A stretch of DNA of 64,000 bases, from positions 67,090 through 131,089 of the forward strand of contig JAOUJW010000003.1 of NCBI GenBank assembly GCA_029882975.1, written 5' to 3'. This DNA is from Gammaproteobacteria bacterium. Its GTDB lineage: Bacteria > Pseudomonadota > Gammaproteobacteria > SZUA-152. The notes beneath the pieces were generated by a model. The model did not search any database and was not told where the DNA came from. It saw only the letters and a program-made list of their open reading frames with translations. Position numbers and translations under genes: made by a program. Below, in pieces: positions 731 to 57,996 of this stretch (within the stretch, counting starts at the first letter, position 1; each line of letters starts with the position of its first letter).

Positions 731-771
731 TTTCAATAGCGCAAGAGCATGGGTTAAAAGAGAGAGTACAT

Positions 772-10573: not shown

Positions 10574-10584
10574 TGGAGGCGGTG

Positions 10585-15228: not shown

Positions 15229-15261
15229 GTCCGAATTCCATTGTGTGTATCACACTAACTC

Positions 15262-30313: not shown

Positions 30314-31315
30314 TTACCCCCCGGTCATAGACATAAATCTTACGACCTGCTGCGGTTTTTCCACAAACTCATGTTTTTCCGGTTTACGTCTTATGGCGTC
30401 CACAATAGCTTGTTCAATGTCGGTGTCGCTGGCGCCGGATCGCAACAGGGGGCGCAGTTCCACTTTGTCGTTTTGCCCCAGACACAAATACAGCGTGCCT
30501 TCGGCGGATAGACGTACGCGATTACAGCTGTCGCAAAAGTGTTGCGAGATAGGCGTGATGAAACCAATGCGTAACTCCGTGTCGGCTACCCGGACATAAC
30601 GAGCCGGGCCGCCGCCGTTCATTACGCTGGGAAGCAAACGGTACTTCTGTTCCAAGCGCGCTTGCACTTGCTCCAGGCTGATATAGTGGTCCGTGGCGTT
30701 TTGTCCTGTGTTGCCTATGGGCATGGTCTCAATAAAACGCAGAGTAAAATCGTGCGCTATGCAAAAATCTACCATGGCTTCGATTTCATCGTCGTTAACA
30801 CCGCGCATGACCACCATGTTGATTTTGATGGGTTTAAAACCCGCCTCTTTGGCCGCCATAAGGCCGGCCATGACTTTTTCTAATTTGCCGCCATTGGTAA
30901 TGGTTTTGAAACGTTCTGGCTGAAGGCTGTCCAGGCTCACATTAATGCGGCTCACGTTGGCCTGCTTGAGAGCATGGGCATGGCGTTGCAGTTGCACTGC
31001 ATTGGTACTTAAGGATAAATCGTCTATGCCCGGCAGGGCGGAGAGTTGTTGTGCCAGCTGTGGCAGGTTTTTGCGTAACAGCGGCTCGCCTCCGGTGATG
31101 CGAATGCGATTAACGCCCAAGCGGCCAAAAGCGCCGATTAAACGCTGGATTTCATCGGCGTTTAACCAATGTTCCGGTTCTTCAAAGCTTTTAAATCCCT
31201 TAGGCAAGCAATAGACACAACGTAAATCACAACGGTCGGTCACGGACAGGCGCACGTATTCAATACGGCGACCGAACGCGTCATAAAGTCCGTTGTTGTT
31301 GCTTTGCGAGCTCAT
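30314..31315 (-). CDS. moaA: GTP 3',8-cyclase MoaA (molybdenum cofactor biosynthesis)
   Basis: Radical-SAM N-terminal motif (YVRLSVTDRCDLRCVYCLP). C-terminal Cys cluster (CDSCNRVRLSAEGTLYLCL). Confidence 0.85.
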   Translation of the reverse strand: MSSQSNNNGLYDAFGRRIEYVRLSVTDRCDLRCVYCLPKGFKSFEEPEHWLNADEIQRLIGAFGRLGVNRIRITGGEPLLRKNLPQLAQQLSALPGIDDLSLSTNAVQLQRHAHALKQANVSRINVSLDSLQPERFKTITNGGKLEKVMAGLMAAKEAGFKPIKINMVVMRGVNDDEIEAMVDFCIAHDFTLRFIETMPIGNTGQNATDHYISLEQVQARLEQKYRLLPSVMNGGGPARYVRVADTELRIGFITPISQHFCDSCNRVRLSAEGTLYLCLGQNDKVELRPLLRSGASDTDIEQAIVDAIRRKPEKHEFVEKPQQVVRFMSMTGG

Positions 31316-32457: not shown

Positions 32458-33186
32458 TTACCATGACGTGGAATCCTCCAAATACGGCCCGTCGTCGTCC
32501 TGAGGCAACGGACCCTCCTTCTTGAGCGGGTTGTCCACACGCACCAGTTCGTCTTCGTGAATATGCTGCTTGGTCTTACGCCGGGGCAAATAGTGATTGG
32601 CCGGCTGAGTACCCCATTCGGGCATGAGCGCATAGCCGCCGTTTTCACGAATGGCAATGGATGCTTCCGAATTGGGGTCGTGTACATCACCAAAAATACG
32701 CGCACTGGTGGGGCAGGAGATAACGCAGGCCGGTCGGCGTTCCGTTTCAGGCAGCTCTTCATTGTAGATGCGGTCTACGCACAAAGTGCATTTTTTCATG
32801 ACTTTTTCGTGCTGATCCAACTCGCGGGCACCGTAGGGGCAAGCCCAGGAACAGTAACCGCAGCCGATGCACTTGTCGTAGTTCACCAGTACTATGCCGT
32901 CTTCTTTGCGTTTGTAGCTGGCGCCCGTGGGACACACGGGTACACACGGGGCGTCTTCGCAATGCAGGCAGCTCTTGGGAAAGTGCACCGTTTCCGTGTG
33001 GGGAAAGACGCCCACTTCATAAGTCTGCACTCGATTAAAGAAAGTGCCCGTGGGGTCTTTGGCGTAAGGATTGTCATCCGTCATCGGTCCTGCGGAACCG
33101 GAGGAGTTCCACTGCTTACAGCTGGTCACACAAGCGTGGCAGCCAACGCAGACATTTAAATCAATAACTAAAGCAAGTTGCGTCAT
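32458..33186 (-). CDS. Four-cluster [4Fe-4S] ferredoxin-type iron-sulfur subunit (DmsB-like; SoeB-like)
   Basis: Four Cys clusters: CVGCHACVTSC, CLHCEDAPCVPVCP, CIGCGYCSWACP, CTLCVDRIY..CVISCP. Start taken at MTQLALVIDLN, which leaves a 10-nt gap after the catalytic subunit gene. Confidence 0.75.
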   Translation of the reverse strand: MTQLALVIDLNVCVGCHACVTSCKQWNSSGSAGPMTDDNPYAKDPTGTFFNRVQTYEVGVFPHTETVHFPKSCLHCEDAPCVPVCPTGASYKRKEDGIVLVNYDKCIGCGYCSWACPYGARELDQHEKVMKKCTLCVDRIYNEELPETERRPACVISCPTSARIFGDVHDPNSEASIAIRENGGYALMPEWGTQPANHYLPRRKTKQHIHEDELVRVDNPLKKEGPLPQDDDGPYLEDSTSW

Positions 33187-36088: not shown

Positions 36089-36547
36089 TTAGGGTTCCTG
36101 AATAAAGCAAACGAAAAGTATATATCAGAATATTCGCATATACCTAATCAGCAATATTGAGCGTGGAATAGAAAAATTATATTTACTACTCAATTGCCGT
36201 CTAAAGGGTAGGAATTTCAAGGTCTTTATCTATTCTAGCCTGGAAATGATGAATATAGGCTGACTAGTATGCAAAATCGTGTCAATTCTGTGAAACCTGA
36301 GACACAAAATCCACTACGACTTTTGAGGCCATGGTTGGAACTGAATAAGGTTGGAAGGAACGGGATTTATTAATTAATGGCTTTATTAAAAAGCCGAATA
36401 GCAATAACGGGCAATTGCGAATAGAATAGGCGGCGCAAATAATTTTCAGTCAACCTTTGCAAAACAAGAACATATTAACTGTAACTCCGAAAGCGGTAGA
36501 CAGTGGTTGACACAACTTTCGGTAGATACTGGAGGAGGGAAGCAATA

Positions 36548-37837
36548 ATGGTGGACGCGGTTGCAACCAACCAGACCATAGTGGTTGTCGGTGGTGGTAT
36601 TGCGGGTCTTACTGCAGCGCTCGAGGCCGCTGAGTGTGGTAAAGACGTTATTCTGATCGAAAAAAGCCCTGCGGTGGGCGGGCGTATTTCGCGCTTATAC
36701 AAGTATTTCCCGAAACTGTGTGTTCCCTCTTGCGGCCTGGAAATCAACCTGCGCCGACTCAAAGCCAATAAAAACATCCGGCTGATTACTCTTGCGGAAG
36801 TGAGTCAAGTCAGCGGCGAAGCCGGTAACTACAGCTTGTCCGTGAGTGTCAAACCTCGCTTTGTGACGGAAAATTGCACCGCTTGCGGAGATTGTGCCAC
36901 GGCATTGGAAACCAACGATTACAGCGACGAACACAATTACGGTATGAGTAAGCGCAAAGGCGCTTATTTACCGCACAATATGGCCTACCCGCAACGCTAC
37001 GTCATCGATCCGGCTATGATCGGCAGCGACGATGCCAATAAAGCCAAAGCGGCTTGTCAATACAATGCGATTGATTTGGATATGCAAGAGCAGACGTTGG
37101 AGCTAAAAGCGGGAGCCATTATTTGGGCCACCGGTTGGAAGCCTTACGATGCAGCTAAAATTCAGCCCTACGGCTACGATCGCTACGAGAACGTCATTAC
37201 CAGTGTGGAGTTCGAACGCATGATGGACCCTTACGGTCCCACCGGTGGCAAACTGGTTCGGCCTTCCGACGGTAAAGAAGCCAAGAACGTCGCTTTTATT
37301 CAGTGTGCCGGTTCCCGAGATGAAAATCATCTGCGCCACTGTTCCCGTATATGCTGTATGGCCAGCCTGAAGCAAACCACTTATGTGCGGGAGCAATACG
37401 GTGACGAAGGTAAGTCCAGTGTGTATTACATTGATATTCGTGCCATCGATCGCATTGATGATTTCTATCAAAACGTTCAGGCCGATGAAAACGTCACCTT
37501 TGTTAAGTCTAAAGTGGCCAGCATTACCCTGGACAAAGCCAGCGGTGACCCCGTGCTTAATGGTGTGAATACGGAAGGTTATCATCGTTACAGCAACGCG
37601 CATGATTTGGTTGTGCTGGCGGTGGGTATGGAGCCCAGCGTGCCCAAAGAGGCATTTCCTGTTGAGGTGAAACTTAACGAAAACGGGTTTATCGAACAGG
37701 ACGACAGCAACGGGGCTATTTTTGCCGCCGGTTGCGCGTCCGACGCCCTGGATGTGAATCGAGCGGTACAAAACGCCACTGCCAGTGCACTGCGTGCAAT
37801 TCAAGTGGTTAATCGCGTCGCCGGAATGGAGGGATAA
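36548..37837 (+). CDS. HdrA-like FAD-dependent oxidoreductase (QmoA-like)
   Basis: GGAGGG RBS. FAD Rossmann motif (IVVVGGGIAGLTAALEAAE). Internal Cys cluster (CTACGDCA). About 430 aa. Confidence 0.7.
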   Translation: MVDAVATNQTIVVVGGGIAGLTAALEAAECGKDVILIEKSPAVGGRISRLYKYFPKLCVPSCGLEINLRRLKANKNIRLITLAEVSQVSGEAGNYSLSVSVKPRFVTENCTACGDCATALETNDYSDEHNYGMSKRKGAYLPHNMAYPQRYVIDPAMIGSDDANKAKAACQYNAIDLDMQEQTLELKAGAIIWATGWKPYDAAKIQPYGYDRYENVITSVEFERMMDPYGPTGGKLVRPSDGKEAKNVAFIQCAGSRDENHLRHCSRICCMASLKQTTYVREQYGDEGKSSVYYIDIRAIDRIDDFYQNVQADENVTFVKSKVASITLDKASGDPVLNGVNTEGYHRYSNAHDLVVLAVGMEPSVPKEAFPVEVKLNENGFIEQDDSNGAIFAAGCASDALDVNRAVQNATASALRAIQVVNRVAGMEG

Positions 37838-37841
37838 GAAA

Positions 37842-40070
37842 GTGGCAGATGAAATAAAAATCGGCGCCTATATTTGTAAGGGTTGTGGTTTGGGCGAGCG
37901 TCTTGGGGAGGCGCAATTACCCATGATTGCCGAGCGCGAAGCCAAGGCCCATGTTGTTAAAGAACATGACTTCCTGTGTAACGCTGAAGGCGTTGCCATG
38001 ATACAGGCGGATATTGATAATGAGGGTGTGAACCGTGTGGCCATTTGCGCTTGTTCCCGCCGTGCCAAGACGGAAGCTTTTAATTTTGAAAACGTGGCCA
38101 TCACCCGCGCCAATTTGCGCGAGGGTGTGATCTGGGCACGACCGGATACGGATGAAGCCCGGGAAACCACCCATGAAATGGCTGCGGATTACGTGCGCAT
38201 GGCAGTGGCTGAGGCTCGTTTCCAAAAACCGCCGGCAGCCAATGCCGAAGCCGCCTACAATAATCAGATACTAGTCGTTGGTGGTGGTGTCAGTGGTATG
38301 ACATCTGCCATAGAAGCGGCTAAAGCCGGTTATTCCGTCACGATCGTGGAGAAAGGCGCGCAGCTGGGTGGTCATACAGCAGGATTTTATAAGCGTATTC
38401 CCGATAAAGCCCCGTACAAGGATCCCGTGCCCACCGGCGTGGAGGAAATGATTCTGGCAGTGGGCGCTGACAATAAGATCACTGTCCATTTGAATTCCAC
38501 GGTGACTAAAACCGACGGTTCTCCCGGACGTTTTTCTGTGGATATCAGTACAGAAAGCGGTTCCACTTCCACTGAAACCTTCGGTTCTATTATTCAGGCA
38601 TCCGGCTTTACGCCTTACGATGCCAACAAGCTGCCGGAATTGGCTTATGACAAGTCCAAGGATGTCGTCACTCAATCGGAGTTGGAAGCTTTGGCCAAAG
38701 CAGCCAATGGCGGCCCCATTAAGCGGCCTTCCGATGGTAAGGAAGTCAGCAGTGTTATCTTTGTACAATGCGCCGGCCAGCGTAGCAATGAGGAAGGTCA
38801 TTTACCCTATTGTTCCGGACATTGCTGCCTCACTTCCATCAAGCAAGCTATGTATTTCAAAGATGCCAATCCGAGCATTGATGCTAATGTGATCTACACG
38901 GATTTACGCACTCCGGGTGCGGGCGGCGAGGACTTCTATCGCAGTGGCCAGGAAAAAGGTGTTACCTTTACCAAAGGTAAAGTGAGTTCGGTACTTATCG
39001 GTGACCAGCTTACCGTAAAGTTTCAGGATTTGATCCTGGCTCAGGAGTCAGCGGAACAAGCGGACCTGGTGGTCTTGGCAACCGGTATGGTGGCCAACTC
39101 AGGTGTGGATATCGATGCACTGCCTAAACCCGACAAAGAGGATGGGACGGTTGAAGTGAGCATTCCTGTCGAGTCCATCCTTAACCTAACCTACCGTCAG
39201 GGGCCGGATTTACCGCATTTAAAGCACGGTTTCAATGATTCTCATTTCATCTGTTTTCCCTATGAGACTCGCCGTACGGGTATCTATACTACCGGCCCGG
39301 TACGTCGTCCGATGGATATTTTACAGGCCAAAGAAGATGCGACCGGTGCGGCGTTAAAAGCGATACAGGCTATAGAAAACTCCGGTAAAGGTCGTGCAGC
39401 TCATCCTCGCTCGGGCGATTTGTCTTTCCCGTCATTTCGTCGGGAAGGTTGCACTCAGTGTAAACGTTGTACGGTAGAGTGCCCCTTCGGTGCTATCGAC
39501 GAAGACGAGCAACGCTATCCGGTGTTTAATGAGTCACGTTGTCGCCGTTGCGGAACCTGTATGGGTGCTTGTCCGGTGCGGGTTATCTCATTTGAAAATT
39601 ATTCCGTGGAAACGGTTGGGCAACAGCTCAAGAGTGTGGATATTCCCGAAGAATTTGATGAAAAACCACGCATTCTGGTCTTGGCTTGTGAGAATGACGC
39701 TTACCCCGCCCTGGATATGGCCGGCATGAACCGTCACGAATACAGTGCGTTTGCACGAATCATTCCGGTACGCTGTTTGGGTTCCACCAATCTGGTTTGG
39801 ATCACAGACGCCATGAACAGCGGTTATGACGGTGTGATCTTGATGGGTTGCCAAAAAGGTGAGAACTATCAGTGTCACTTCGTTAAAGGATCGGAAATGG
39901 CGCATTACCGCATGAGTAAGGTAGATGATACGCTGAAGAGCTTATCTTTGGAGGGGGAGCGAGTGGCCACTTACGAAGTAGCGATTACCGATAGTGAGCG
40001 GGTGGCCCAGTTGATCAACGATATGGCAGCGACCATTGAAAAAATCGGCATGAGCCCGTTTAAGTTCTAG
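37842..40070 (+). CDS. HdrA-like flavoprotein with ferredoxin domains and C-terminal MvhD-like domain (QmoB-like)
   Basis: GTG start at 37842 lies 4 nt after the upstream stop, with a GGAGGG RBS. Second FAD motif (ILVVGGGVSGMTSAIEAAKAG). 2x[4Fe-4S] motifs (CTQCKRCTVECP, CRRCGTCMGACP). The C-terminus (ILVLACENDAYPALDMAG..RIIPVRCLGSTN) matches the MvhD fold. Confidence 0.7.
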   Translation: MADEIKIGAYICKGCGLGERLGEAQLPMIAEREAKAHVVKEHDFLCNAEGVAMIQADIDNEGVNRVAICACSRRAKTEAFNFENVAITRANLREGVIWARPDTDEARETTHEMAADYVRMAVAEARFQKPPAANAEAAYNNQILVVGGGVSGMTSAIEAAKAGYSVTIVEKGAQLGGHTAGFYKRIPDKAPYKDPVPTGVEEMILAVGADNKITVHLNSTVTKTDGSPGRFSVDISTESGSTSTETFGSIIQASGFTPYDANKLPELAYDKSKDVVTQSELEALAKAANGGPIKRPSDGKEVSSVIFVQCAGQRSNEEGHLPYCSGHCCLTSIKQAMYFKDANPSIDANVIYTDLRTPGAGGEDFYRSGQEKGVTFTKGKVSSVLIGDQLTVKFQDLILAQESAEQADLVVLATGMVANSGVDIDALPKPDKEDGTVEVSIPVESILNLTYRQGPDLPHLKHGFNDSHFICFPYETRRTGIYTTGPVRRPMDILQAKEDATGAALKAIQAIENSGKGRAAHPRSGDLSFPSFRREGCTQCKRCTVECPFGAIDEDEQRYPVFNESRCRRCGTCMGACPVRVISFENYSVETVGQQLKSVDIPEEFDEKPRILVLACENDAYPALDMAGMNRHEYSAFARIIPVRCLGSTNLVWITDAMNSGYDGVILMGCQKGENYQCHFVKGSEMAHYRMSKVDDTLKSLSLEGERVATYEVAITDSERVAQLINDMAATIEKIGMSPFKF

Positions 40071-40088
40071 GCGGAGGGGACAAGAACA

Positions 40089-40709
40089 ATGACTGCATCG
40101 AATACTGACGTCATCGAAGCGTACAGAAACAATTTTCTTAAAGAAGTGGAAGCCAATGTAGAGGAAGGCCAGTGGGTGAAAATGTGCATGCAATGTGGCG
40201 TGTGCTCCGGCTCCTGTCCTCTTGGCTCCCATTGGGCGCATCCGCCGCAGGAAATCTTTATGATGATCCGAGCCGGTAAGCGCGAAGAGGTATTAACTTC
40301 CGACTCCATGTGGATGTGTACCTCGTGTTACAACTGCATCGTGCGTTGTCCGCGGGGCCTGCCGATTACTCATATCATGCACGGCCTGGCGCACTATGCT
40401 CATCGTTTGGGTTTGGCGCCGAAGGAACAACCCACGCGTAAATTCGCCAAATTGTTCTGGGACAATCTCACCAAGACCGGACGGGTTAATGAGTTGCAAT
40501 TGGGTTTGAGGCTGTATTTCATGAACGGCCCAATGGAAGGGATCAAGACGGCGTTGAAAATGAAAAACATCGGCTTGAATATGTGGAAAACCAAACGCAT
40601 GAATCCCATGGAGTTTTTCGGTGGCCATAAATGCAAAGACGCCGACAAACTACAGGCAATTTTGAAAAAAGCCCGTGAAATTGAACTGGCTAAAGCCAAA
40701 CAAGTTTGA
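40089..40709 (+). CDS. Heterodisulfide reductase subunit C-like (2x[4Fe-4S])
   Basis: Two Cys clusters: CMQCGVCSGSCP and CTSCYNCIVRCP. Confidence 0.7.
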   Translation: MTASNTDVIEAYRNNFLKEVEANVEEGQWVKMCMQCGVCSGSCPLGSHWAHPPQEIFMMIRAGKREEVLTSDSMWMCTSCYNCIVRCPRGLPITHIMHGLAHYAHRLGLAPKEQPTRKFAKLFWDNLTKTGRVNELQLGLRLYFMNGPMEGIKTALKMKNIGLNMWKTKRMNPMEFFGGHKCKDADKLQAILKKAREIELAKAKQV

Positions 40710-41620
40710 GGAGAGATAGACTAATGGCTAAAAAGGAATACTCGTTTTATCCCGGTTGCTCTTCTCAGAAGGGTGCTTCATCGTCCAATTACGATACATC
40801 CATAAAGACGATGTGTGATGTCCTGGATATTCAGTTAAACGAAATTCAGGATTGGAACTGTTGTTCTGCTTCCATCGGTTACGGTGAGGGTGGGGAATTA
40901 CCCCGCCTGGCTTTGAGCGCACGTAATTTGGCTCTGTCCGAGCAACAAAATGCCGGGCAAGACATCGTCGCGACCTGCGCCGCCTGCTGGCTGGCCACGC
41001 GTGAAACCCGCGAACGCCTGTTGGAAGATGAACATTTGATGAAAGAAACCAACGAAGCCCTGGCTGCCGGCGGTTTGAATGTGGCCGCTTCTCAGAACGT
41101 TCGTCACATGGTAGAGGTTCTAATTGAAGACTTCGGCTATGAACAACTGGGTTCCAAAGTGACCAACCCTCTGGAAGGCTTGAAAATAGCCGGTTATGTT
41201 GGGTGCCAGACTAATCGTCCTTTTGGGATTGATGGCGAGTCTTACGAAAACCCCATGTATCTGGACAAGCTGGTTGAAACTATGGGGGCCGAGCCTTTAA
41301 GCAAGTATGAAAAAAAGGTTCAGTGTTGCGGCGGTGCTTTGGCATTTTCCGAACCGGAAAAAAGCCAGGCCATGATTAAGGATATTATCGAATCTGCCTA
41401 CGATCATGGGGCCGACATGATCGTAACGCCCTGTCCCGTTTGTCAAATGAATACGGAAGTTTATCAAGACCAAATCAACAAAACGTATGGCACGAAGTTT
41501 AAAATGCCTGTCGTGTATTACAGCACCCTAATGAGTGTTGCCTATGGTAAGAGTCACAAGGAAGCCGCTTTGGATGGTCAAATCATCAAAGCCACGAAAT
41601 TGGAACAAAAAGTTAAATAG
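40706..41620 (+). CDS. Heterodisulfide reductase subunit B-like (two CCG domains)
   Basis: CCG-domain cysteines in two copies: YPGC..NCCSAS..CAAC and YVGCQ..QCCGG..PCPVC. Its start overlaps the HdrC-like stop by 4 nt. Confidence 0.75.
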   Translation: MRRDRLMAKKEYSFYPGCSSQKGASSSNYDTSIKTMCDVLDIQLNEIQDWNCCSASIGYGEGGELPRLALSARNLALSEQQNAGQDIVATCAACWLATRETRERLLEDEHLMKETNEALAAGGLNVAASQNVRHMVEVLIEDFGYEQLGSKVTNPLEGLKIAGYVGCQTNRPFGIDGESYENPMYLDKLVETMGAEPLSKYEKKVQCCGGALAFSEPEKSQAMIKDIIESAYDHGADMIVTPCPVCQMNTEVYQDQINKTYGTKFKMPVVYYSTLMSVAYGKSHKEAALDGQIIKATKLEQKVK

Positions 41621-41643
41621 CGGGACTTTACCGGAAAAAAACA

Positions 41644-41673
41644 AGAGCGCTCCTTCGGAGCGCTTTTTTTTTG
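41644..41673 (+). terminator. Rho-independent terminator ending the qmoAB-hdrCB-like operon
   Basis: Hairpin gagcgctcc-ttcg-gagcgct followed by ttttttttt. Confidence 0.75.
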
Positions 41674-41816
41674 CTTCTAATTTCAATATCAATATATTGA
41701 TATACTATTTTCAAAAAAAGCCCGGTATTTTACTGACTGAAAATGTAAAGTATTTGTTAAGTTGATTGTTTTGCGGACGATATGCGATGGAGAAGCGGTG
41801 AAAATGGTAACTGAGA

Positions 41817-42977
41817 ATGAAAAAAATGCCGTATTTAACCCAAGCAGATACTCGTATTTTTAAGACAGAACCCCGGTTTCAGGCACTTTTTGTGGTGACT
41901 TCCTTGATTGGGGTGTTTTTGATTTCTATAGCCGTTTTTCGGGCGTCGCAGGAATTGGAGATTCTACACGGGGTTGAAACGACCAGTCGTTTATTCAGTG
42001 AAGTGTTAGGGCAAGAGAAAATTGCCCGTACCATCCAGGGGGAAGCGGTGCCGCTTTTCCCGGCTTCCGATCGCTATCAGGTGTATCGTGTCATCGGGAA
42101 TCGGATATTGCCTCTGGGCAGAGCTCGGAGTCTACCTGAATATTTACCCAATACTTTGACTGGATTGGAATACAGTCGCTTTAGCCCCGACGGTGGGTAT
42201 TTTGAGTGGGAAGGCCAGGTCTATAGTTGGGCCTTGGTGAGAGGCGCTACCAACGGAAATTATTTGTTGGTTTTACATCCGTTTGTCAGTGCCGGTTATG
42301 CCGCGACGCTGTATGCCTATAAACAGCGATTAGTGGTGCCGTTCTTGTTCTACCTTTGGTTGATGGCTTGGGTGACAGTTATATTTCGGCGCATTTGCCG
42401 GGAATTGCGTGGCGTACAGGACGAGATGCAACAAATGGCCTTATATGATGCCTTAACCGGGTTGCCAAACCGCCGTTTGATGACTGATCGCATGGAGAAA
42501 ATGATTCAGCAATGTGAGCGTGAGGGGAGTACCTTTGCCTGCGCCTTGATCGATTTAAATGGATTCAAAGCGGTAAATGACCGTTTGGGACATGCCAGTG
42601 GTGATGAGGTGTTGCGTCAGGTGAGCCAACGATTACGATCTTTGGTGCGAGAGATGGATACGGTGGCGCGACTGGGTGGCGATGAGTTTATCGTGTTATT
42701 GCAGGGTATTGATGAAGCATCACTGCATACTGCGTTTGCTCGTGTACAGACGGTTTTGGACAAGCCTTATCAGTTGGATCTGTCTACTCAAACCTTGGGC
42801 GCCAGCATAGGTGTTTGCATATATTCCCGGCAACATAGTACCGTGCAGAGTCTCATCCATCATGCGGATCTGGCAATGTATGAGGCCAAGCAAAATGGTG
42901 GCGGAACCTATTTTTCGAAATCCAGTCAAATGGATGTAGTCACATCCGGTACCCGGAAATGTAATGCGGTGATATGA
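41817..42977 (+). CDS. GGDEF diguanylate cyclase with periplasmic sensor region
   Basis: Transmembrane segment, periplasmic domain, second transmembrane segment, then a GGDEF domain with canonical RLGGDEFIVLL. Confidence 0.75.
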   Translation: MKKMPYLTQADTRIFKTEPRFQALFVVTSLIGVFLISIAVFRASQELEILHGVETTSRLFSEVLGQEKIARTIQGEAVPLFPASDRYQVYRVIGNRILPLGRARSLPEYLPNTLTGLEYSRFSPDGGYFEWEGQVYSWALVRGATNGNYLLVLHPFVSAGYAATLYAYKQRLVVPFLFYLWLMAWVTVIFRRICRELRGVQDEMQQMALYDALTGLPNRRLMTDRMEKMIQQCEREGSTFACALIDLNGFKAVNDRLGHASGDEVLRQVSQRLRSLVREMDTVARLGGDEFIVLLQGIDEASLHTAFARVQTVLDKPYQLDLSTQTLGASIGVCIYSRQHSTVQSLIHHADLAMYEAKQNGGGTYFSKSSQMDVVTSGTRKCNAVI

Positions 42978-43016
42978 GCGCGCTGACGGTTTCCCACCAG
43001 CAAAGAGAGCAGTGAG

Positions 43017-43241
43017 ATGATTAAATTTCGTCGTAACATGAACAGTTTGGATCGACTATTTAGAGCTACCGTTGGGGCTACACTGTTAGCCATAGGCCCG
43101 GTATTTCAACTGCTGACCAACGATATGCTGTCCCTGGCTATTCTTGGTGTCATAGGTAGTGTAGCAGTGCTGTCAGCCGTGTTTTCCTACTGCTTTCTTT
43201 ACGAAGTCACTGGATTCAGCACTCGCAGTGAAAACTTATAG
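43017..43241 (+). CDS. DUF2892 (YgaP-like) small membrane protein
   Basis: The sequence NMNSLDRLFRATVGATLLAIG..YCFLYEVTGFST fits the DUF2892 pattern. Confidence 0.55.
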   Translation: MIKFRRNMNSLDRLFRATVGATLLAIGPVFQLLTNDMLSLAILGVIGSVAVLSAVFSYCFLYEVTGFSTRSENL

Positions 43242-43259
43242 GTGCTTCTGAGCTTTGTT

Positions 43260-43553
43260 TTAAGGATCAACTTCTTCACCGTAGATAACAAAGTCAACCA
43301 AGCCCGGCTCAGTGGGAAGCCAGCCCTGTTTCAGGGCAAATATTATAGTTTTCGTCAGTAAACTGTCGGAGATTTCGATCTCGGGCGGTTCGCTGTTGGA
43401 AGTCTGGTAATTATAACCGATTCTTAGTACCTGCCCTTCGCTGGATTTGTGTTGTATGTAAATGTCCAGGACCCAGTCAGTCCGATTCACTCGCCAAGTA
43501 TAAACAATACCGTTCTGAGTTAACTCGTTGATTTGTAATTCGGAAGCCGTCAT
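43260..43553 (-). CDS. Hypothetical protein
   Basis: ORF of 97 aa with no recognisable motif. Confidence 0.35.
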   Translation of the reverse strand: MTASELQINELTQNGIVYTWRVNRTDWVLDIYIQHKSSEGQVLRIGYNYQTSNSEPPEIEISDSLLTKTIIFALKQGWLPTEPGLVDFVIYGEEVDP

Positions 43554-43715
43554 GGGACTAGGTTATTGGGCTTTTGAGTCAGGGTCAAGCGGCGGGAAAA
43601 TCACATGTGCAGGTAATTTAACATTTGTCACATTAAGTGCTTTATTCTGTTACCGATAGTGAATTGCGGTAGGGTTTGCATTCAAACCTTAGTGGAGATG
43701 GGCCAAGGATACCTA

Positions 43716-45638
43716 ATGTTGATAAAAACCAAACTATGGACCAGTCTGGGCTTGTTGGTATTTTTTGTATTGGCCAGCGGTGGCGCTGGAATTATTGGGG
43801 TTTCCAAGGTGGTTTCTGTTATGGAATACGTGACCGGACCGGCTTGGAAAACCGCGGATGGAGCTATGGAAGGGAGTATTCATACCGGTTTGGAAATAGT
43901 CGCTGTAAATAACGCACTTTTGCAAATGCGCAATTTGAATGTAAATGATGTAGACGCGGTTTTAAACCTTGATGTGCATAAAAACAGCGCGGATAAAGCG
44001 TTTGATCGCTTGATGTCCGCAGGATTGATGAACTCCAACCAAATACTTCGCCTTAAGCAACATATGGATATTTTCAACCAATCACAACGCGAAGTGATTC
44101 AGTTGTTGCGAGAGTTTGTGACAGCTGATCGGAAATTGTACGTGGATTTTACCGCATTTAACGGATTTTTGACTCAATTGGAAGAATTGGGAGATTCCTA
44201 CGTTGAAGTTTTGGAAAATAATCCGAATCAACGTCTCAGTTGGAACTCCGGTTTGTCCCAGCGGTGGATTGCTGCGGATTCCGCCATGGAATCACAGATT
44301 AATTTTTTAGCTATCTATTTTGCCTATGAAACTTTGTTGCGGACTTCAGGAACGGAGTTGAGCTCCAGTGAGGTCGATAAACGTATCACCCAGTATCGCA
44401 AAACCGCAAAGTTGGTAAGTGTGGCCAAACTGTTTGTTCAGGAAAAGCACCGTTCCGGAAAGACCCTGGCGCAGGAGTTTTCACAGCGCTCGGATGCGGT
44501 AGTGGGGGGCTTTCAAACTGCGGTTTCCACGTACATACGTTTGCAGCGCAGGTACGCAGGCTATTTACACACGACCCGGGAGCTCATCGACTTCTTAGCT
44601 AAAGTGGAGTCCGATGCCGATGCTAAGGTGGAAAATGTTGTTGCTGAAACAGGATACGTGACCCGTGCGGCTTTCTCCCTCATTGTTGTTGTGGTTCTGG
44701 TCAGTGTGGCGGTGGCTCTACTGATTGCCACCGTTGTCGTTCGCATTGTCAATTCGCTGGAACATATGAAACAAACCGCCTTACGCATTGCGAGCGGGAG
44801 CCTGCAGGAGTCGGGACACGGTGATCACAGCGCCGATGAAACCGGACAAAGTCTTGCAGCCATGATGCAGTTGAACGATCGCATGGCCGATGTTATTGGC
44901 AATATTCTGGACTCTATCAGTGAGGTGAATCAGGCGGCGATTCATGTGAACACGTCTTCCAAACAATTGAATCACTCGGCCTTAAAGCAGGCGCATTCCC
45001 TGGAGGAAATAAGTACCTCCTTAAAGTTGATTTCTGAGTCTGTGGGAATCAATTCTGACAATGCAACAAGAACCCAAAGCATTGCTGCGGCAGTTTCAGA
45101 GAAAACACAAAAAGGCGGGAGGGCAGTGCAGGATACCGTGGATGCAATGCAAAGCATTGCGGAAAGGGTGTCGTTGATCGAAGATATTGCCTACAAAACC
45201 AATTTGCTCGCACTCAATGCCGCCATTGAATCCGCCAGAGCGGGTGATCATGGTCGAGGTTTTTCTGTAGTCGCAGAAGAGGTGCGCAAACTGGCCGAAC
45301 GCAGTCAACAGTCGGCTCATGAAATTGGTGAATTGGCGCAAAATAGTGTTGCAGTCGCCGAGGTGGCCGGTGGTTTGATTCGGGAGGTAGTCCCAGGGAT
45401 TGTGGAAACAGCGGAATTGGTGAGTCAAATTTCGAGCGCTTCGCAGGAGCAGGCCCGGGATGTGACCGCTGTCAGTCATTCTATCCACCAGTTAGACAGA
45501 GCGGCAAAAATGGGGGCTGTCTCTTCCGAGGAATTAGAGGTTACTGCGAGGCAAATGTTAGCTCAGGTTCAACGGGTTCGTCAGGCATTGGCTTTCTTTT
45601 CTGTAGGGAAGGTTGGAAAGAATGCCGGTAGTGTCTAA
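43716..45638 (+). CDS. Methyl-accepting chemotaxis protein
   Basis: The ATG at 43716 is preceded by AAGGA. Transmembrane segment, periplasmic 4-helix-like domain, second transmembrane segment, then the MCP signalling domain ([35 protein letters not shown]). Confidence 0.8.
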
Positions 45639-45668
45639 TGTGGTCGTTGTATATGCGAGGTTGCCGGA

Positions 45669-47777
45669 CTAAGACGCACTGCGATATCTGTTGTTGTGTG
45701 GGTTTAAAAACTTTTTCTCGAAAACGATCTCGGGTAAGGGCCTGCTGATATAAAACCCCTGCGCCTCATTGCAATTATGCTGCACCAAAAAATTCATCTG
45801 TTCCTGGGTTTCAACGCCTTCTGCGATTACATTCATATTCAGGGTGTGGCATAAAGCAATAATCAGTTTGGCTATTTCACCGTTTTCACCATTGGGTTGT
45901 ATATCCCAGATGAAGGAGCGGTCAATTTTTAGCGTTTGTAAGGGCATGTGTTTTAGGGAACTGAGAGACGAATACCCGGTGCCAAAATCGTCCATAGAGG
46001 TTTGTACCCCCATTTCCCGAAATGCGGACAGAATATTGATCGTTCGTCCTATATCGCTCATGACGCAGGATTCGGTGAGTTCCAGGTCCAGGCAGCCCGG
46101 GGGGATGCCCGTATCGGCAAGTACCTTTTCCACATCCTTAATCAATGCGGCATCTTCAAATTGCTGTGCAGAAAGGTTTACACCTACTTTCAATTTACCG
46201 TAACCGGCGGCGATCCATTGGCTTACCTGGTTTGCGGCAGTTCTCAAGGCCCAGCGACCAATTGGTACGATCAGCCCGGTTTCCTCAGCAAGAGGTATAA
46301 ACTGGTCCGGAGGGATCAGTCCTTTTTCAGGGTGCTGCCAACGGATTAAGGCCTCCATTCCTTGAAGGCTGCGGTTGCTAACAGATACCTGAGGTTGGTA
46401 ATACAAGGTGAAGTTTTCTCGGCCAATGGCTTTGCGCAGTTCTGTTAGTGTGGCCAGTCTTTCAGAAGCGATGTTAATAGAGCTTTTTTGGTATCTGGTT
46501 TGTCGATTACCACCTTTCGCTTTTGCAACAAACATGGCGGATTCAGCGTATTGAATCAGCATGTCGCCATTGCCGTGCTGTTTGGGGTAAAAGGCAGTGC
46601 CCAGACTGAACGTAAGATAGATTTCGTGTTGGTCAAGCGTGAAAGTTTTGTGCAGTTGTTGTGTGAGATTGTCTATAAAATATTGAATTTCATTTTCTGC
46701 TTTGGTTGACGGAGTGACTAGAATGAAAATATCCCCGCTGATGCGACCGATAAGTTTTGCGCCGCACTGGTTTAGTCGATCACTTAGTTGAAGCAGAAGC
46801 TTGTTGCCTTTGTCATAACCAAAAGAATCATTGATTTGTTTAAAACGGTCGATCCCTATACAGATGACACCGAGTTGTTCAGTTTTCTTGGCAATAATAA
46901 GTTCGTTGAGTTGATGTATGAGTAAACGGAGTTTAGGAAGTTTGGTCAGCTCGTCGAAACTGAGCTGTTGATGCAGTTGCAGGTCGTACTCTACTTTGTC
47001 ACTGATATTTTGGACCGTGCATGTGAGTTTCAGGTGTCGATTGTCCGCGTTCACCACCTCGCCATGCTCTTGCACATAAACCGTTTCATCCGATTCTCCC
47101 AGCATGCGGTGTTCCAGTTGAAAGGTTAAATCCGGATGCAGCGTTTGTGAAAACAGACTGGAAAAAAAGTCTCTGTCGCCGGGATGAATAAGCGCAAGGA
47201 ACTCCTCCGGGCTTATATCCAGGTCTTGTTCCTTGCGGTTTAGTAGCTCAAACAGTTCTTCGGTACAAAATACAGTGCGCTTCACCGGGTCAAATTCCCA
47301 ATAGGCTATACCGGCTATTTTTTGGATTTCTACCAACTGCTTGCGTTTTGTATGGAGTTCTCGTTCGTTTATGGATGCGCGTAGTGTGTATATAACTCTT
47401 TGTGACAATAACTGGGGGTTGACGGGCTTGGGTATGAAATCTGTGACACCTTTGTCGAGACAGCGTTCGATAATGGTATTGTCATTGCGCCAGGTCAGCA
47501 TGATTATCGGCGGGAGCGGTTCGTCTTTCGCCCTCAGTGTTTCTATAAACTCGAGCCCGCTGCCATCCGGCAATGCGTAGTCTAACAAAATCAAATCGGG
47601 TGGACAGACTTGGCAGGCATGGTAGGCTTCCTTTAAACAGCTCGCTCCATGCACTCTAATGCCGTATAAGCCCAGTAGGCTGGATACGAGAGCAGAAATG
47701 ACAGGGTCGTCGTCTACGACGAGTATATTGTTAACATCGTTGTTAAATTCGATTGGGCTGTCGGTCTCGACTTTCAT
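45669..47777 (-). CDS. Response regulator receiver-PAS-GGDEF(degenerate)-EAL protein
   Basis: N-terminal receiver (ILVVDDDPV..LILLDYALPDGSG). The GGDEF motif is degenerate (RISGDIFIL). The EAL domain is intact (MEALIRWQHP..DLELTES..QGFYISRP). Confidence 0.8.
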   Translation of the reverse strand: MKVETDSPIEFNNDVNNILVVDDDPVISALVSSLLGLYGIRVHGASCLKEAYHACQVCPPDLILLDYALPDGSGLEFIETLRAKDEPLPPIIMLTWRNDNTIIERCLDKGVTDFIPKPVNPQLLSQRVIYTLRASINERELHTKRKQLVEIQKIAGIAYWEFDPVKRTVFCTEELFELLNRKEQDLDISPEEFLALIHPGDRDFFSSLFSQTLHPDLTFQLEHRMLGESDETVYVQEHGEVVNADNRHLKLTCTVQNISDKVEYDLQLHQQLSFDELTKLPKLRLLIHQLNELIIAKKTEQLGVICIGIDRFKQINDSFGYDKGNKLLLQLSDRLNQCGAKLIGRISGDIFILVTPSTKAENEIQYFIDNLTQQLHKTFTLDQHEIYLTFSLGTAFYPKQHGNGDMLIQYAESAMFVAKAKGGNRQTRYQKSSINIASERLATLTELRKAIGRENFTLYYQPQVSVSNRSLQGMEALIRWQHPEKGLIPPDQFIPLAEETGLIVPIGRWALRTAANQVSQWIAAGYGKLKVGVNLSAQQFEDAALIKDVEKVLADTGIPPGCLDLELTESCVMSDIGRTINILSAFREMGVQTSMDDFGTGYSSLSSLKHMPLQTLKIDRSFIWDIQPNGENGEIAKLIIALCHTLNMNVIAEGVETQEQMNFLVQHNCNEAQGFYISRPLPEIVFEKKFLNPHNNRYRSAS

Positions 47778-47889
47778 CTGCTCGCGTTCAAGTTATGGGG
47801 CAATATTGGGCGAATTCCGGATGTCATTGTTTTATCGGATGCAAACGCCCGGGATTGAAGTGGGAAATGTTAAATATGCTTGAATCTTA

Positions 47890-47916
47890 AGCAAAAAGGG
47901 CGGACTGCGTCCGCCT
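47890..47916 (-). terminator. Rho-independent terminator for the gene ending at 47943
   Basis: Hairpin gggcggac-tgc-gtccgcc. On the minus strand it is followed by a T-run (AAAAA on the plus strand at 47893-47897). Confidence 0.55.
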
Positions 47917-47942
47917 TTCTTGTTGAGGATTAAAAGAAGGGG

Positions 47943-49202
47943 CTATCGCAATTGATCTGCAACGATTCGATCTTTCTCGATACGGTCTTCAACTCGTGCA
48001 AAAGCCTGAGTGACGTATCGGTTGGGCTTTTTCAGCAAGGTCTCGGCATGACGATAATTGTCCAGAGCCAGTTCCATGTCATTTTTGACTTCAGCGCAAA
48101 CACCTAGGTTGTAGTAAATAGCAGCAGACTGGTTATACAACTGCTGGGCCCGGTGAAAATCATTGCAGGCACGGTCCAGATGGCCGCTTTTTGCAAAGCG
48201 TAAGGCGCTGTCAAAAATGGATTTTGCTTCTTTGTGGTCTTTGAGTTCACTGCCATCTTTATTTAACAATTGAATGGACATGGTGATTTCATAAGGTGCG
48301 ACGTCGTGCCGCATTTTCTCGATAGCGGTATCCATTGCCATCTTTGACAAATCAACGGGGTCTTTGGCCTGGTTGTTCTTTTCGTTATTGCAATAACTAT
48401 GGGTTTGATTAGCGCTATAGGTTTTGGCAAAGGTGATTTGATTGTTGTCAACATTGACAGCTTTAATGGCAAATTCAATCTCCGCACTTTGTTTGGTGCA
48501 GGGTATTTTATGTTTGACGTATTCCACACATTTTTTGGAGCTAATGCCGGGTGTTAAGGGATTGTTTTTTTGTTCGTACTTAACGCATTCGCTTTCTTCT
48601 TTTTCGTAGCGCTCATAGTTAACAAAAGGCCATTTGACCGCACCGGTTAAAATCGTATCTGCTCCCGATAATTGTCCCAATCGTACGGCGTCTTGTCGTT
48701 GAAACACATAGCTTGGAGGTGTGATCTCAGGCAGTGAAACCTCATTGCGTGCCCGGCGTCTTGGGGACTTTCTGGGACCGGTTTTTATTGGTTTGAGTCC
48801 CGGTGGTTTGGGGATGGCGTCAAACAAGGACAATATAGAGGCAATGTCGCCCGATTCGCCAAATTGGGCTGCTTCCTGCAGTAGGTGTTGAGGTACCGTA
48901 AAATTGTTGGCCACTATCGAATCCATCATGCCGGGGTCAATGACGGCAAAGTACGGCGAACCCTGGACTCGGATGTTGGTAAAAAACGCTTCCATTTTCG
49001 CCGTAAATATCCCTTTGCGATCACCATGAAAGTCGATAACGGCGAGTTTTTTTGAATTTTTCATCACATCGGCGTTGGCGGGCATAAGGACTCGTTGCTT
49101 CACTGTGGGACCGGCACAAGCCGAGGCAAGTAGGCATAGAATACAGAGGAAGTTCAGACGTGGATTCAAGCGGTGGTATATTTTCATGATATTGACTGTC
49201 AT
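47943..49202 (-). CDS. Hypothetical lipoprotein with C-terminal TPR-like repeats
   Basis: Lipobox LLASACAG. C-terminal TPR-like helices (AQQLYNQSAAIYYNLGVCAEVKNDMELALDNYRHAETLL). Confidence 0.45.
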   Translation of the reverse strand: MTVNIMKIYHRLNPRLNFLCILCLLASACAGPTVKQRVLMPANADVMKNSKKLAVIDFHGDRKGIFTAKMEAFFTNIRVQGSPYFAVIDPGMMDSIVANNFTVPQHLLQEAAQFGESGDIASILSLFDAIPKPPGLKPIKTGPRKSPRRRARNEVSLPEITPPSYVFQRQDAVRLGQLSGADTILTGAVKWPFVNYERYEKEESECVKYEQKNNPLTPGISSKKCVEYVKHKIPCTKQSAEIEFAIKAVNVDNNQITFAKTYSANQTHSYCNNEKNNQAKDPVDLSKMAMDTAIEKMRHDVAPYEITMSIQLLNKDGSELKDHKEAKSIFDSALRFAKSGHLDRACNDFHRAQQLYNQSAAIYYNLGVCAEVKNDMELALDNYRHAETLLKKPNRYVTQAFARVEDRIEKDRIVADQLR

Positions 49203-49355
49203 GGAGAAGCTCCGTAGGTCGTTGGTTTTCTTTGTAATGAGGTTAATAATAGGTGATTCGTTGGATTATTCCAGAATTAAACAGGGTAGGAGTTGCGCTA
49301 CGCGTCGCAACCTGGACGGTGAGCCGCAGTTATACAGGGAATCAGGTCTTGGTGA

Positions 49356-50744
49356 CTACAAAGTCGTTTTTTTGGCTATGCGCACCAGCTGCGCCAGTTC
49401 TGCTTCGATATGCTTGCGTTTGGCTTCCAGATAACGCCTGAGTTTACGCTTGCGGACAAATAGGGCGAACACCCGCAGGTTTTCCCAAATACGGCGTCGT
49501 TCTTTACGATAAAACAGCGCCAGGGCTGCACTGATAGGCAGGCTGGCGGCATAGAGCAATGCCGCCCCGATTTCATAATAATAGAATACAAGTGCGGTTT
49601 GAGTGCCCCAAAATATCCAGAAAAAGAATAATCCCAGGACCATTTTCGCAGTGTCGTATTGGTCGCGACCTTTCGATACGGCGCGGGCAATGGCCCGTGT
49701 TAATATAAACGGGGCAATAGAGTTCAGAATACCCCAGGCGGCCAAGGGCAAAACCAAGACAATAACCGCGATGCTGCGTAGAATGAAGCGACTCACGTTG
49801 CCCAGCCGGTAGTCAAAGGTCAGTGTATAGTCGCGGATTCCCCAATGTTGGCATAGGCGCTCAAATTGCGCCAGTTGGCGTTTGAGCTGTACCACTTTGT
49901 TGGGACAATGCTCCCGCAAGTGTTCTTGTGCTTGAGCGATTTTTTTCAACGCCTTGAATCGCAACTCCATACTTCGACGTCTGTACTTGCCGTGGCGCAT
50001 GGCAAAAAAACGCTCCAACCACTGGATAAATTCAAAGTCACCTTCGCTGTCTGCATTGAGGGTGACCGCTTCCAGTTCGGTTTGAATTTTGTGGGTAAAT
50101 AACCGAATCCGTTCCGGGTCTGGGCCGATGCGGTCCAGTTCCTGTTGGGCGGCCAAGGGTGGGTTGATTTTGATGAGTACACGGCTGCGAAAACGACCTT
50201 TATCGGAAAAATTCAAACCGATGGGGACAATGAGGGGTTCGATGTTGCGCTGTAAAGCGCCTTCAGCCAGACGGGCTATGCCGGTTTTCAAGGTTCTCAG
50301 TTTGGGATCTGAATGGCTTTGCCCCTCAGGAAAGATTAATAGCCACTCGCCAATCTCCAGCATGTCATGACAGCGAGCGAACATATCCAGATTGTGGTTC
50401 ATGTCGCCTTCGCCGTCCTGTTGTCGGTATACAGGAACGGCCTGAATCAAATTGAGAACCGGTTTCAATACAGGATTTTTAAACAGACCGCTACGGGCAA
50501 TGGGGTGTACAGTTTTCGTGGTTATCGTTTGTACTATCAGAGCATCCGCCAGGGCATTGGCGTGGTTTGCACATAGGATCACGGCACCACTTTGGGGTAA
50601 GTTTTCCAGACCGGAAATCTCCAGTTCGCGGTAGAAAACGTTCACCATAACGCGGCAAAAACCTCGCCACATTTTTTGAAAAATTCCGTTTTTGGCTTGG
50701 ATGCTTGGCGCTAATGTCGTATTTGTACAGGGTGTAGATGCCAT
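49356..50744 (-). CDS. Lysophospholipid/glycerol-3-phosphate acyltransferase-family protein with C-terminal membrane domain
   Basis: Acyltransferase blocks (ILCANHANALAD.., LLIFPEGQSHSD). C-terminal transmembrane helices. Confidence 0.6.
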   Translation of the reverse strand: MASTPCTNTTLAPSIQAKNGIFQKMWRGFCRVMVNVFYRELEISGLENLPQSGAVILCANHANALADALIVQTITTKTVHPIARSGLFKNPVLKPVLNLIQAVPVYRQQDGEGDMNHNLDMFARCHDMLEIGEWLLIFPEGQSHSDPKLRTLKTGIARLAEGALQRNIEPLIVPIGLNFSDKGRFRSRVLIKINPPLAAQQELDRIGPDPERIRLFTHKIQTELEAVTLNADSEGDFEFIQWLERFFAMRHGKYRRRSMELRFKALKKIAQAQEHLREHCPNKVVQLKRQLAQFERLCQHWGIRDYTLTFDYRLGNVSRFILRSIAVIVLVLPLAAWGILNSIAPFILTRAIARAVSKGRDQYDTAKMVLGLFFFWIFWGTQTALVFYYYEIGAALLYAASLPISAALALFYRKERRRIWENLRVFALFVRKRKLRRYLEAKRKHIEAELAQLVRIAKKTTL

Positions 50745-50832
50745 CTTGCTTACTCAATCACAAACCACAGGTCATTGTAAGCTTCAATGCAAAAAAGTAA
50801 AGCATCCGGGATTGTGGGCTCAGCCGCGGCCC

Positions 50833-57988: not shown

Positions 57989-57996
57989 GTGTAACC

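Follow-up and report, generated by a model that had tools for sequence, protein, structure and literature searches.

QmoAB-HdrCB, also written HdrAACB, is listed among the components of Beta- and Gammaproteobacteria that oxidise sulfur (PMC6397845, PMC10504309, PMC8477390, PMC11237559), and 'HdrAACB/QmoABHdrCB' was tabulated over 82 sulfur-oxidiser genomes by Watanabe et al. (PMC6397845). QmoAB-HdrBC and AprM are regarded as alternatives for adenosine 5′-phosphosulfate (APS) reductase in sulfur oxidisers (PMC6397845, PMC10504309, PMC11237559, PMC5024460, PMC10086054), and symbiont comparisons described AprM and QmoAB/HdrBC as functionally complementary (PMC11237559). As cited in PMC2211403 and PMC6397845, Meyer and Kuever tied the Qmo genes of sulfur oxidisers to aprBA of the sulfate-reducing bacteria type. 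Here, a 64,000-nt stretch of a gammaproteobacterial metagenome-assembled genome (MAG) was analysed (GCA_029882975.1, contig JAOUJW010000003.1, positions 67,090 to 131,089; hereafter the window). It carries qmoABhdrCB divergent from moaA-soeCBA. This locus is an ordinary copy of the QmoAB-HdrCB operon of sulfur-oxidising bacteria.

Described carriers among sulfur oxidisers are Thiolapillus brandeum Hiromi 1, Sulfuricaulis limicola (SCL_2523-2520), Thiodictyon syntrophicum (THSYN_16425-16440) and Thiobacillus denitrificans. The window locus has the same four genes, order and domain content, and its QmoB is 66-83% identical to the relatives from those lineages. It differs in that its island holds neither aprBA nor sat, and in that soeCBA and qmoABhdrCB are direct divergent neighbours. 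In T. brandeum (2014), the QmoAB-HdrCB cluster lies away from aprBA, and T. denitrificans is organised likewise (PMC4136832). The island of T. syntrophicum Cad16 (2018), whose genome is without aprM, comprises soeABC (16370-16380), sat (16390), aprBA (16395/16400) and QmoABHdrCB (16425-16440) (PMC5944118). Published precedent therefore exists for the arrangement as such, for its presence in Gram-negative sulfur oxidisers, for a location apart from aprBA and for one close to soeABC. A first-pass annotation, made from the sequence of the window, had taken the qmoAB-hdrCB order as that of Gram-positive sulfate reducers and called the combination uncharacterised. Neither claim can be kept, because the order was intact in all sulfur-oxidiser loci that could be read (see below) and because clusters unlinked to aprAB (PMC4136832), or a few genes from soeABC-sat-aprBA (PMC5944118), were already on record.

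Three further systems were compared. In QmoABC of sulfate reducers and green sulfur bacteria (Desulfovibrio, Candidatus (Ca.) Desulfofervidus auxilii, Chlorobaculum), QmoA and QmoB are orthologous to those of the window, with about 48% identity for Ca. D. auxilii, and AprBA is the presumed partner. The window differs from QmoABC in having no haem-b membrane domain, a separate HdrB with two CCG motifs and presumably an oxidative electron flow. The qmoAB-hdrCB of Gram-positive sulfate reducers (Desulfotomaculum group) shares the subunit composition and the loss of QmoC but, as cited in PMC10504309 and PMC8477390, stands beside aprBA and works reductively. With HdrABC-MvhAGD of methanogens (5ODC, 7BKB, 8RVU), the window proteins share the flavin adenine dinucleotide (FAD)/Fe-S core, the HdrC relay, the non-cubane motifs of HdrB and the MvhD fold, here on QmoB. 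In contrast to the methanogen enzyme, two shorter subunits take the place of HdrA through a split and a duplication, there is no hydrogenase, and the scores lie far below the family cut-offs. CoM-S-S-CoB is not expected in the window organism.

The identity of the two flavoproteins was decided against a Qmo reference locus, which was found by an exhaustive search of 50%-identity representatives for full-length proteins of QmoB architecture. One 50%-identity cluster held a protein annotated as QmoB from Ca. Desulfofervidus auxilii, a sulfate reducer whose locus (L087) reads qmoA-qmoB-qmoC-dsrA-dsrB-dsrD and encodes a 374-aa QmoC with a membrane domain. The window QmoA matched the QmoA of this organism at 48.6% identity (421 bits, residues 7-423) and its QmoB with 147 bits; the window QmoB matched QmoB at 47.6% identity over its full length (699 bits) and QmoA with 177 bits. 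Because A and B were clearly discriminated against the sulfate-reducer proteins, the pair is assigned by sequence to the QmoA and QmoB orthologues and not to HdrA2, Flx-Hdr or sHdr. The first-pass annotation had read two HdrA-like flavoproteins in series, of about 430 and 743 aa, as a QmoA/QmoB signature. Proteins of 429 and 742 aa were found, and the signature held, with about 48% full-length identity to both sulfate-reducer proteins.

Profile searches against Pfam and NCBIfam bore out its domain description of all four proteins. In QmoA, an N-terminal Rossmann FAD motif matched several Pfam FAD/NAD families. In QmoB, Fer4 families and an FlpD/MvhD domain were found (132.6 bits, residues 630-755 of the longer open reading frame (ORF)), and residues 606-741 matched MvhD chains in PDB. 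The cysteines predicted to bind clusters were nearly all invariant in alignments of the window proteins with their orthologues (73-82 sequences per subunit), the exception being one QmoB group. Ten QmoA cysteines, including the CxGSRD...C...CC cluster motif (C253/C265/C269/C270), were invariant in 75 sequences (window plus 74 orthologues). The invariant groups of QmoB are 12/15/46/71, 537-577 (two CxxCxxCxxxC motifs) and 616/645/670/678 (MvhD-type). The group 310/324/328/329 was conserved in 91% of rows, probably due to fragmentary rows.

If the names of the best models were followed, the proteins could be taken for sHdr or a methanogen/Flx-type HdrABC and not for Qmo at all. The best NCBIfam names were HdrA2, HdrB and HdrC. 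The solved relatives of the operon proteins were solely methanogen HdrA, HdrB, HdrC and MvhD chains and 6TJR, a 349-residue flavoprotein whose record is titled fumarate reductase/succinate dehydrogenase flavoprotein domain protein. We take 6TJR to be the sHdrA of Hyphomicrobium, a name that the record does not give. However, all scores were far below the cut-offs: 355.7 bits for QmoA, with HdrA2 as its best NCBIfam match, and 381 for QmoB on the same model (cut-off 1100), 171.3 against 345 for HdrB, and 85.4 against 160 for HdrC. Neither flavoprotein sided with a non-Qmo lineage, since the 421 and 699 bits to bona fide QmoA and QmoB compare with 220-247 bits to the methanogen HdrA structures in PDB, a difference put at about threefold. 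The single HdrA of sHdr is not known to carry an MvhD domain. The sHdr order is hdrC1B1A-hyp-hdrC2B2 (PMC6397845), whereas the window order is A-A-C-B with one hdrCB pair, and no mvh, flx or second hdrCB pair lies nearby. The chance that the operon is something other than Qmo is therefore slight in the extreme. The sHdr, Flx-Hdr and methanogen Hdr identities were rejected on architecture and scores, and are refuted for practical purposes.

Separate HdrC- and HdrB-like proteins replace QmoC, as the first-pass annotation had stated, and no transmembrane segment was predicted in any of QmoA, QmoB, HdrC and HdrB of the window. A canonical QmoC fuses an Fe-S domain to a haem-b transmembrane domain; the HdrC-like protein, of 206 aa, has no such membrane part. 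It matched Fer4_8 in Pfam, HdrC in NCBIfam (TIGR03290) and HdrC chains in PDB (E about 1e-17). On the qmoC model NF038018 it scored 49 bits against a cut-off of 300, within the N-terminal part (model positions 4-89 of 360). It was 27.5% identical (55 bits) to the N-terminal Fe-S domain of the Ca. D. auxilii QmoC, and eight of its cysteines were invariant among the aligned orthologues. In the operon, the HdrC-like protein takes the place of the soluble N-terminal part of QmoC. The HdrB-like protein carries PF02754 (CCG) twice and matched HdrB chains in PDB over its full length (E 1e-35 to 1e-38). Both of its C...CC...CxxC motifs were invariant in 73 sequences (window plus 72 orthologues).

The four genes are closely spaced, with gaps of 4, 18 and 14 nt at qmoA/qmoB, qmoB/hdrC and hdrC/hdrB. 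The first-pass annotation had called the junctions overlapping or 4-nt spaced. The first gap agreed, while the other two were larger, and an overlap arises solely if the TTG at 40706 given in the ORF list is taken as the start of hdrB. Most likely translation of hdrB begins at ATG 40724, because the alignment of relatives begins at that ATG. The strong terminator that had been noted behind the set was also found. Its hairpin (41643-41667) has an 11-bp stem with 6 G-C pairs and a 3-nt loop, and is followed by a T run. Beyond it, the next gene encodes a GGDEF protein.

The distribution of the operon was examined with QmoB. A protein search returned 7,994 proteins at E ≤ 0.001; among the best 120, one was identical to the window QmoB, the 119 others were 75-83% identical, and many, including relatives at 75-80%, were named QmoB by the Joint Genome Institute (JGI). 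A scan with one genome per species gave 80 loci with 66-79% identity, nearly all from MAGs; the source MAG was not among them. Their labels included Thiohalomonadales, Thiohalobacter, Thioploca, Marithrix, Venteria, Thiobacillus, Sulfuricella, Sulfurimicrobium, Acidiferrobacter and sponge symbionts, and one cultured strain, Sedimenticola selenatireducens DSM 17993, was present. Of 81 related loci from Gamma- and Betaproteobacteria that oxidise sulfur (all loci are numbered with an L here), 69 had enough DNA, and the order qmoA-qmoB-hdrC-hdrB was intact in every one of these 69. Gaps in the gene set fell at contig ends, save for a probable assembly break in L003. Synteny was read from tblastn coordinates; longest-ORF calls were spurious (antisense) in GC-rich loci, and clusters 3, 5, 6 and 7 were set aside.

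A few individual loci stood out. In L003 (CP070733.1, 9086-10000), qmoB-hdrC-hdrB stands without qmoA; qmoB is bordered there by a truncated gatB and an ORF of 87 aa, as would follow from a deletion or a break in the assembly. Among the 50%-cluster representatives, the nearest, L089 (59% identity), reads qmoA-qmoB-hdrC-like followed by an AFG1 ATPase gene, with no hdrB. In L090 (Clostridia MAG JASUSV010000006.1), an AprA-like flavoprotein of 587 aa, a small ferredoxin, a 780-aa HdrA-MvhD fusion, HdrC and HdrB are encoded, a layout unlike both qmoAB-hdrCB and canonical aprBA. L086 (GCA_975961635.1, contig CDLTCG010000035.1, 84 kb), with moaA-soeCBA/qmoABhdrCB, is labelled Kaarinaea lacus, a Nostocales cyanobacterium; the contig is almost certainly a gammaproteobacterial contaminant of a non-axenic culture assembly.

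A CbbQ/NorQ-type MoxR AAA+ gene (PF07728 and PF08406, about 270 aa) was also present in 23 related loci (L014, L017, L019, L020, L023, L027, L028 and 16 more). In most of them it was placed on the strand opposite to qmoA, no more than about 1.5 kb upstream, and it was a commoner neighbour than either soeABC or aprBA. The copies in L057 and L027 had no adjacent VWA partner. The window homologue (53% identity; region 14422-17004) lies 22 kb from the operon and is followed by a VWA protein gene.

An APS reductase accompanies the cluster in some relatives. In six related loci (L003, L017, L051, L055, L061 and L076), aprB-aprA lay within 10 kb of the qmo cluster, and the neighbouring AprA was 90% identical to proteins named adenylyl-sulfate reductase alpha. 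Lys14 and Asp17 of AprB were kept in all five readable loci of these six. The exposed AprB loop with these residues was proposed by Meyer and Kuever as the docking site of QmoABC or QmoAB(-HdrBC) (PMC2211403). A CxxCxxCC protein (PF03692, putative Zn/Fe-S, about 310 aa) was encoded directly after aprA in all six loci, and may be an accessory of lineage-II APS reductase. In L009 and L011 its gene lies downstream of hdrB with no aprA visible, and none was found in the window. The layout of L017 is soeBA leftward, aprB aprA CxxCxxCC rightward, the cbbQ-like gene leftward, then qmoA qmoB hdrC hdrB rightward.

Gene content, orthology, cofactor ligands, operon structure and synteny in relatives were read directly; we infer the partnership with AprBA here, the direction of flow and the acceptor. 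QmoAB-HdrCB, a soluble or peripheral Qmo variant with HdrC and HdrB for QmoC, likely accepts electrons from an APS reductase whose genes would lie at another place in this genome. This enzyme, a lineage-II (Qmo-type) AprBA, would convert cytoplasmic sulfite and AMP to APS, and AprB would pass two electrons to QmoA/QmoB. The cofactors of QmoA and QmoB would be FAD, [4Fe-4S] clusters of the HdrA type and, in QmoB, ferredoxin clusters and an MvhD-like [2Fe-2S] domain. From there the electrons would move via the pair of [4Fe-4S] clusters in HdrC to the two non-cubane clusters of HdrB. The final acceptor, reduced by HdrB, would be either membrane quinone approached from the cytoplasmic side, as by the related CCG protein SdhE, or else a protein or low-molecular-weight disulfide. 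Membrane quinone is most likely, as a guess. It was favoured because the HdrB-like protein scored on the quinol-reactive MFR SdhE (186 bits in NCBIfam) as well as on HdrB, and because the C-terminal half of HdrC matched the C-terminus of MFR SdhB (65 bits, NCBIfam). The SdhE and HdrB scores (186 versus 171 bits) are too close to choose between a quinone and a thiol acceptor. Direct binding of AprAB, mainly via QmoA, was demonstrated in Desulfovibrio, for QmoABC only (PMC3333476).

Several observations weigh against this role. As the first-pass annotation had stated, the 64-kb window holds no APS reductase; tblastn with aprA and aprB found nothing, even at E ≤ 10. No ATP-sulfurylase domain was found in the 41 of 52 window ORFs of at least 150 aa that were scanned, the rest mostly overlapping longer ORFs. 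Proteins identical to those of the qmo genes were met only on short contigs (5.2 and 4.6 kb). The 16.7-kb contig L084, reached through the last gene of the window, showed neither apr nor sat in the 5.8 kb past the 3′ end of the window, and a search with the AprA of a relative returned no protein from the source contig among its best 120 matches. Even among relatives, aprBA adjoins the qmo cluster in a minority. As for the acceptor, quinone is a guess because the four proteins contain no transmembrane or clear membrane-binding segment, and the conserved HdrB motifs would fit thiol/disulfide chemistry equally well. Moreover, electron transfer between quinol analogues and AprAB could not be demonstrated in vitro even for QmoABC (PMC3333476), and no purification of a QmoAB-HdrCB complex is reported in the cited literature.

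In the AprBA-linked scheme above, one FAD may also bifurcate electrons to a low-potential carrier. Bifurcation or confurcation was already proposed for Qmo (PMC3333476, PMC8269255, PMC4949241), and the complex could be an Apr-linked flavin-based bifurcating enzyme with no quinone link. One branch would then use HdrCB to reduce a disulfide, for example DsrC or a carrier of the TusA/DsrE type, and the other would run through the ferredoxin or MvhD-like domains of QmoB to ferredoxin or NAD(P)+, giving a low-potential reductant for CO2 fixation. The non-cubane ligand set of HdrB is conserved in full, two HdrA-like FAD subunits accompany it, the operon has no membrane subunit, and the homologous module of methanogen HdrABC does just that. 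On the other hand, APS/sulfite (about -60 mV, PMC3333476) is a poor ferredoxin donor unless the other branch is strongly exergonic, and neither the window nor the related loci showed a candidate gene for a disulfide substrate in linkage with the operon. We consider this quinone-free version unlikely.

The other candidate partner is the divergent neighbour. A cytoplasmic molybdenum bis(pyranopterin guanine dinucleotide) (Mo-bisPGD) subunit with no twin-arginine (Tat) signal at its N-terminus, a four-cluster Fe-S subunit and an NrfD/DmsC-type anchor were found, in agreement with the SoeABC-like partner of the first-pass annotation. SoeABC, the sulfite:quinone dehydrogenase of Allochromatium vinosum, likewise has three subunits of matching size, a cytoplasmic catalytic subunit without Tat signal and an NrfD/DmsC-type anchor. 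Relatives of the soeA-like protein were 78-87% identical, and one (78%) was named 'sulfite dehydrogenase (quinone) subunit SoeA' by JGI. The likeness was set by the architecture and this named SoeA, and no NCBIfam model reached its cut-off. The neighbour thus has SoeABC architecture and is predicted to have sulfite dehydrogenase activity. The soeB start was read from the translation, and the called homologues in L085 and L086 are likewise 242 aa; moaA has the same position in both of these loci.

The module had been proposed to be coupled to Soe, that is, to work with SoeABC or another sulfur intermediate and not with APS reductase, as a soluble bifurcating or confurcating unit of direct sulfite oxidation. 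The window is without aprBA, and moaA-soeCBA divergent from qmoABhdrCB was kept in the closest relatives, L005, L085 and L086, the last two being exact copies of the layout. L009 showed soeBA divergent from qmoABhdrCB, with its contig end inside soeB, and the layout recurred in the more distant L013, L021 and L080. The clade that keeps it with no nearby aprBA is probably Thiohalomonadales-like, from the labels of related MAGs. As a side observation, a methyl-accepting chemotaxis protein (MCP) gene lies between soeA and qmoA in L011 and L012. Overall, where 3 kb or more of DNA preceded the qmo cluster (67 loci), soeA stood upstream of it in 8, and soeABC was near the cluster in at least 10 related loci, L085 and L086 included.

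However, most loci bearing the four-gene cluster have no soeABC nearby. SoeABC needs no extra electron acceptor, because it has its own NrfD/DmsC-type quinone-reactive anchor. The AprAB-binding subunit in Desulfovibrio is QmoA (PMC3333476), which is conserved in the window, and relatives place Qmo-type aprBA beside the same cluster. Because aprBA sits between soe and qmo in L017 and Thiodictyon (PMC5944118), the adjacency is best read as the clustering of two parallel sulfite routes. Coupling of the module to Soe is therefore improbable. As a partner of APS reductase, QmoAB-HdrCB would form one route, and soeABC would be a second, parallel, AMP-independent cytoplasmic route from sulfite to sulfate, so that the divergent pair would be a 'sulfite-oxidation island' without aprBA-sat. 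Where the clade retains soe beside qmo, an Apr-independent job of QmoAB-HdrCB is very improbable; there, electrons from SoeAB or another sulfur-carrier reaction might be bifurcated to a low-potential acceptor, or, as a minimum, the soe and qmo routes might share one regulatory region.

The coordinates of both units are listed in Table 1.

Table 1. Features of the qmoABhdrCB operon and the divergent soe unit (window positions)
Feature	Position	Strand	Details
moaA (GTP 3′,8-cyclase, molybdenum cofactor synthesis), final gene on the soe side	30314..31315	-	TIGR02666 398.6 bits, above cut-off
soeC-like, NrfD/DmsC-type membrane anchor, 324 aa	31415..32389	-	DmsC and NrfD families, several hydrophobic segments
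soeB-like, four-cluster Fe-S subunit	32458..33186	-	Fer4_11; 242 aa from Met41 of listed ORF
soeA-like, cytoplasmic Mo-bisPGD catalytic subunit, 963 aa	33197..36088	-	Molybdop_Fe4S4, Molybdopterin, Molydop_binding domains
Divergent intergenic region soeA/qmoA, 459 bp	36089..36547	.	between soeA and qmoA
qmoA-like, HdrA core domain only	36548..37837	+	ATG start, ribosome-binding site GGAGGAGGG, 429 aa
qmoB-like, HdrA core, two [4Fe-4S] ferredoxin motifs and C-terminal MvhD-like domain	37842..40070	+	GTG start, ribosome-binding site GGAGGG, 742 aa
hdrC-like, two [4Fe-4S] motifs	40089..40709	+	206 aa
hdrB-like, two CCG domains	40724..41620	+	ATG start (most likely), 298 aa
Intrinsic terminator closing the operon	41643..41677	+ (terminator-like on both strands)	stem, loop, T run

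The divergent region had been put at about 460 bp, in agreement with the 459 bp measured. On its soeA side, a minus-strand TATAAT (36181-36176; ATTATA on the plus strand) falls in a block common to L005, L009 and L021 upstream of soeA. A second conserved block, at about 36140-36160 (CTAATCAG-N3-TATT(G/A)A), was present in the same three loci. On the other side, a 13-nt direct repeat (CGGTAGAcAgTGG / CGGTAGAtAcTGG, 26 nt apart, 36494-36532) lies just 5′ of the qmoA ribosome-binding site. The conserved blocks and the repeat are possible regulatory sites. No promoter was called for qmoA, because the promoter-like matches in the spacer were at chance level, being no commoner than in shuffled sequence. 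No Rfam family was found at gathering thresholds in the whole window, and the sole match in the spacer was to a group I intron, at chance level (21 bits against a threshold of 50).

Other genes of the window were also recorded. A multihaem cytochrome resembling MtrA/PioA (7336-8433), an outer-membrane porin of the MtrB/PioB family (8468-10573, 394 bits) and a cytochrome of the c type (10573-11175) would together form a module of the extracellular electron transfer or Fe(II)-oxidation type in an apparent sulfur oxidiser. The porin also agrees with the Gram-negative-type genome that the first-pass annotation had described, the source being gammaproteobacterial. Just upstream of this trio, on the opposite strand, a 621-aa protein with PKD and cytochrome c domains is encoded (4894-6759). 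The window is rich in signalling genes: three GGDEF and/or EAL proteins lie downstream of the operon, two more elsewhere, and two MCPs are present (regions 41817-53361, 13141-14190 and 23250-24851). A di-haem cytochrome c peroxidase/MauG-like gene (53358-54458) and a DsrE-family protein gene (54925-55497) were found, as were a caspase-domain protein (56948-58078), with several neighbours matching no family, and a CHAT-TPR protein (658-3138). On the equivalent contig L084, a DUF4384 protein is encoded beside the caspase gene. Two large proteins, of 777 aa (window 27366-29699) and 891 aa (L084 293-2968, just past the 3′ end of the window), matched only a 5′-nucleotidase C-terminal domain and are too long for typical SoxB.

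The window locus adds one more uncultured gammaproteobacterium to the many sulfur oxidisers with QmoAB-HdrCB and carries little weight as a discovery. The four-gene unit is invariant over about 70 species and recurs beside lineage-II aprBA, with the CxxCxxCC protein, and beside soeABC, which points to cytoplasmic sulfite oxidation as its context.

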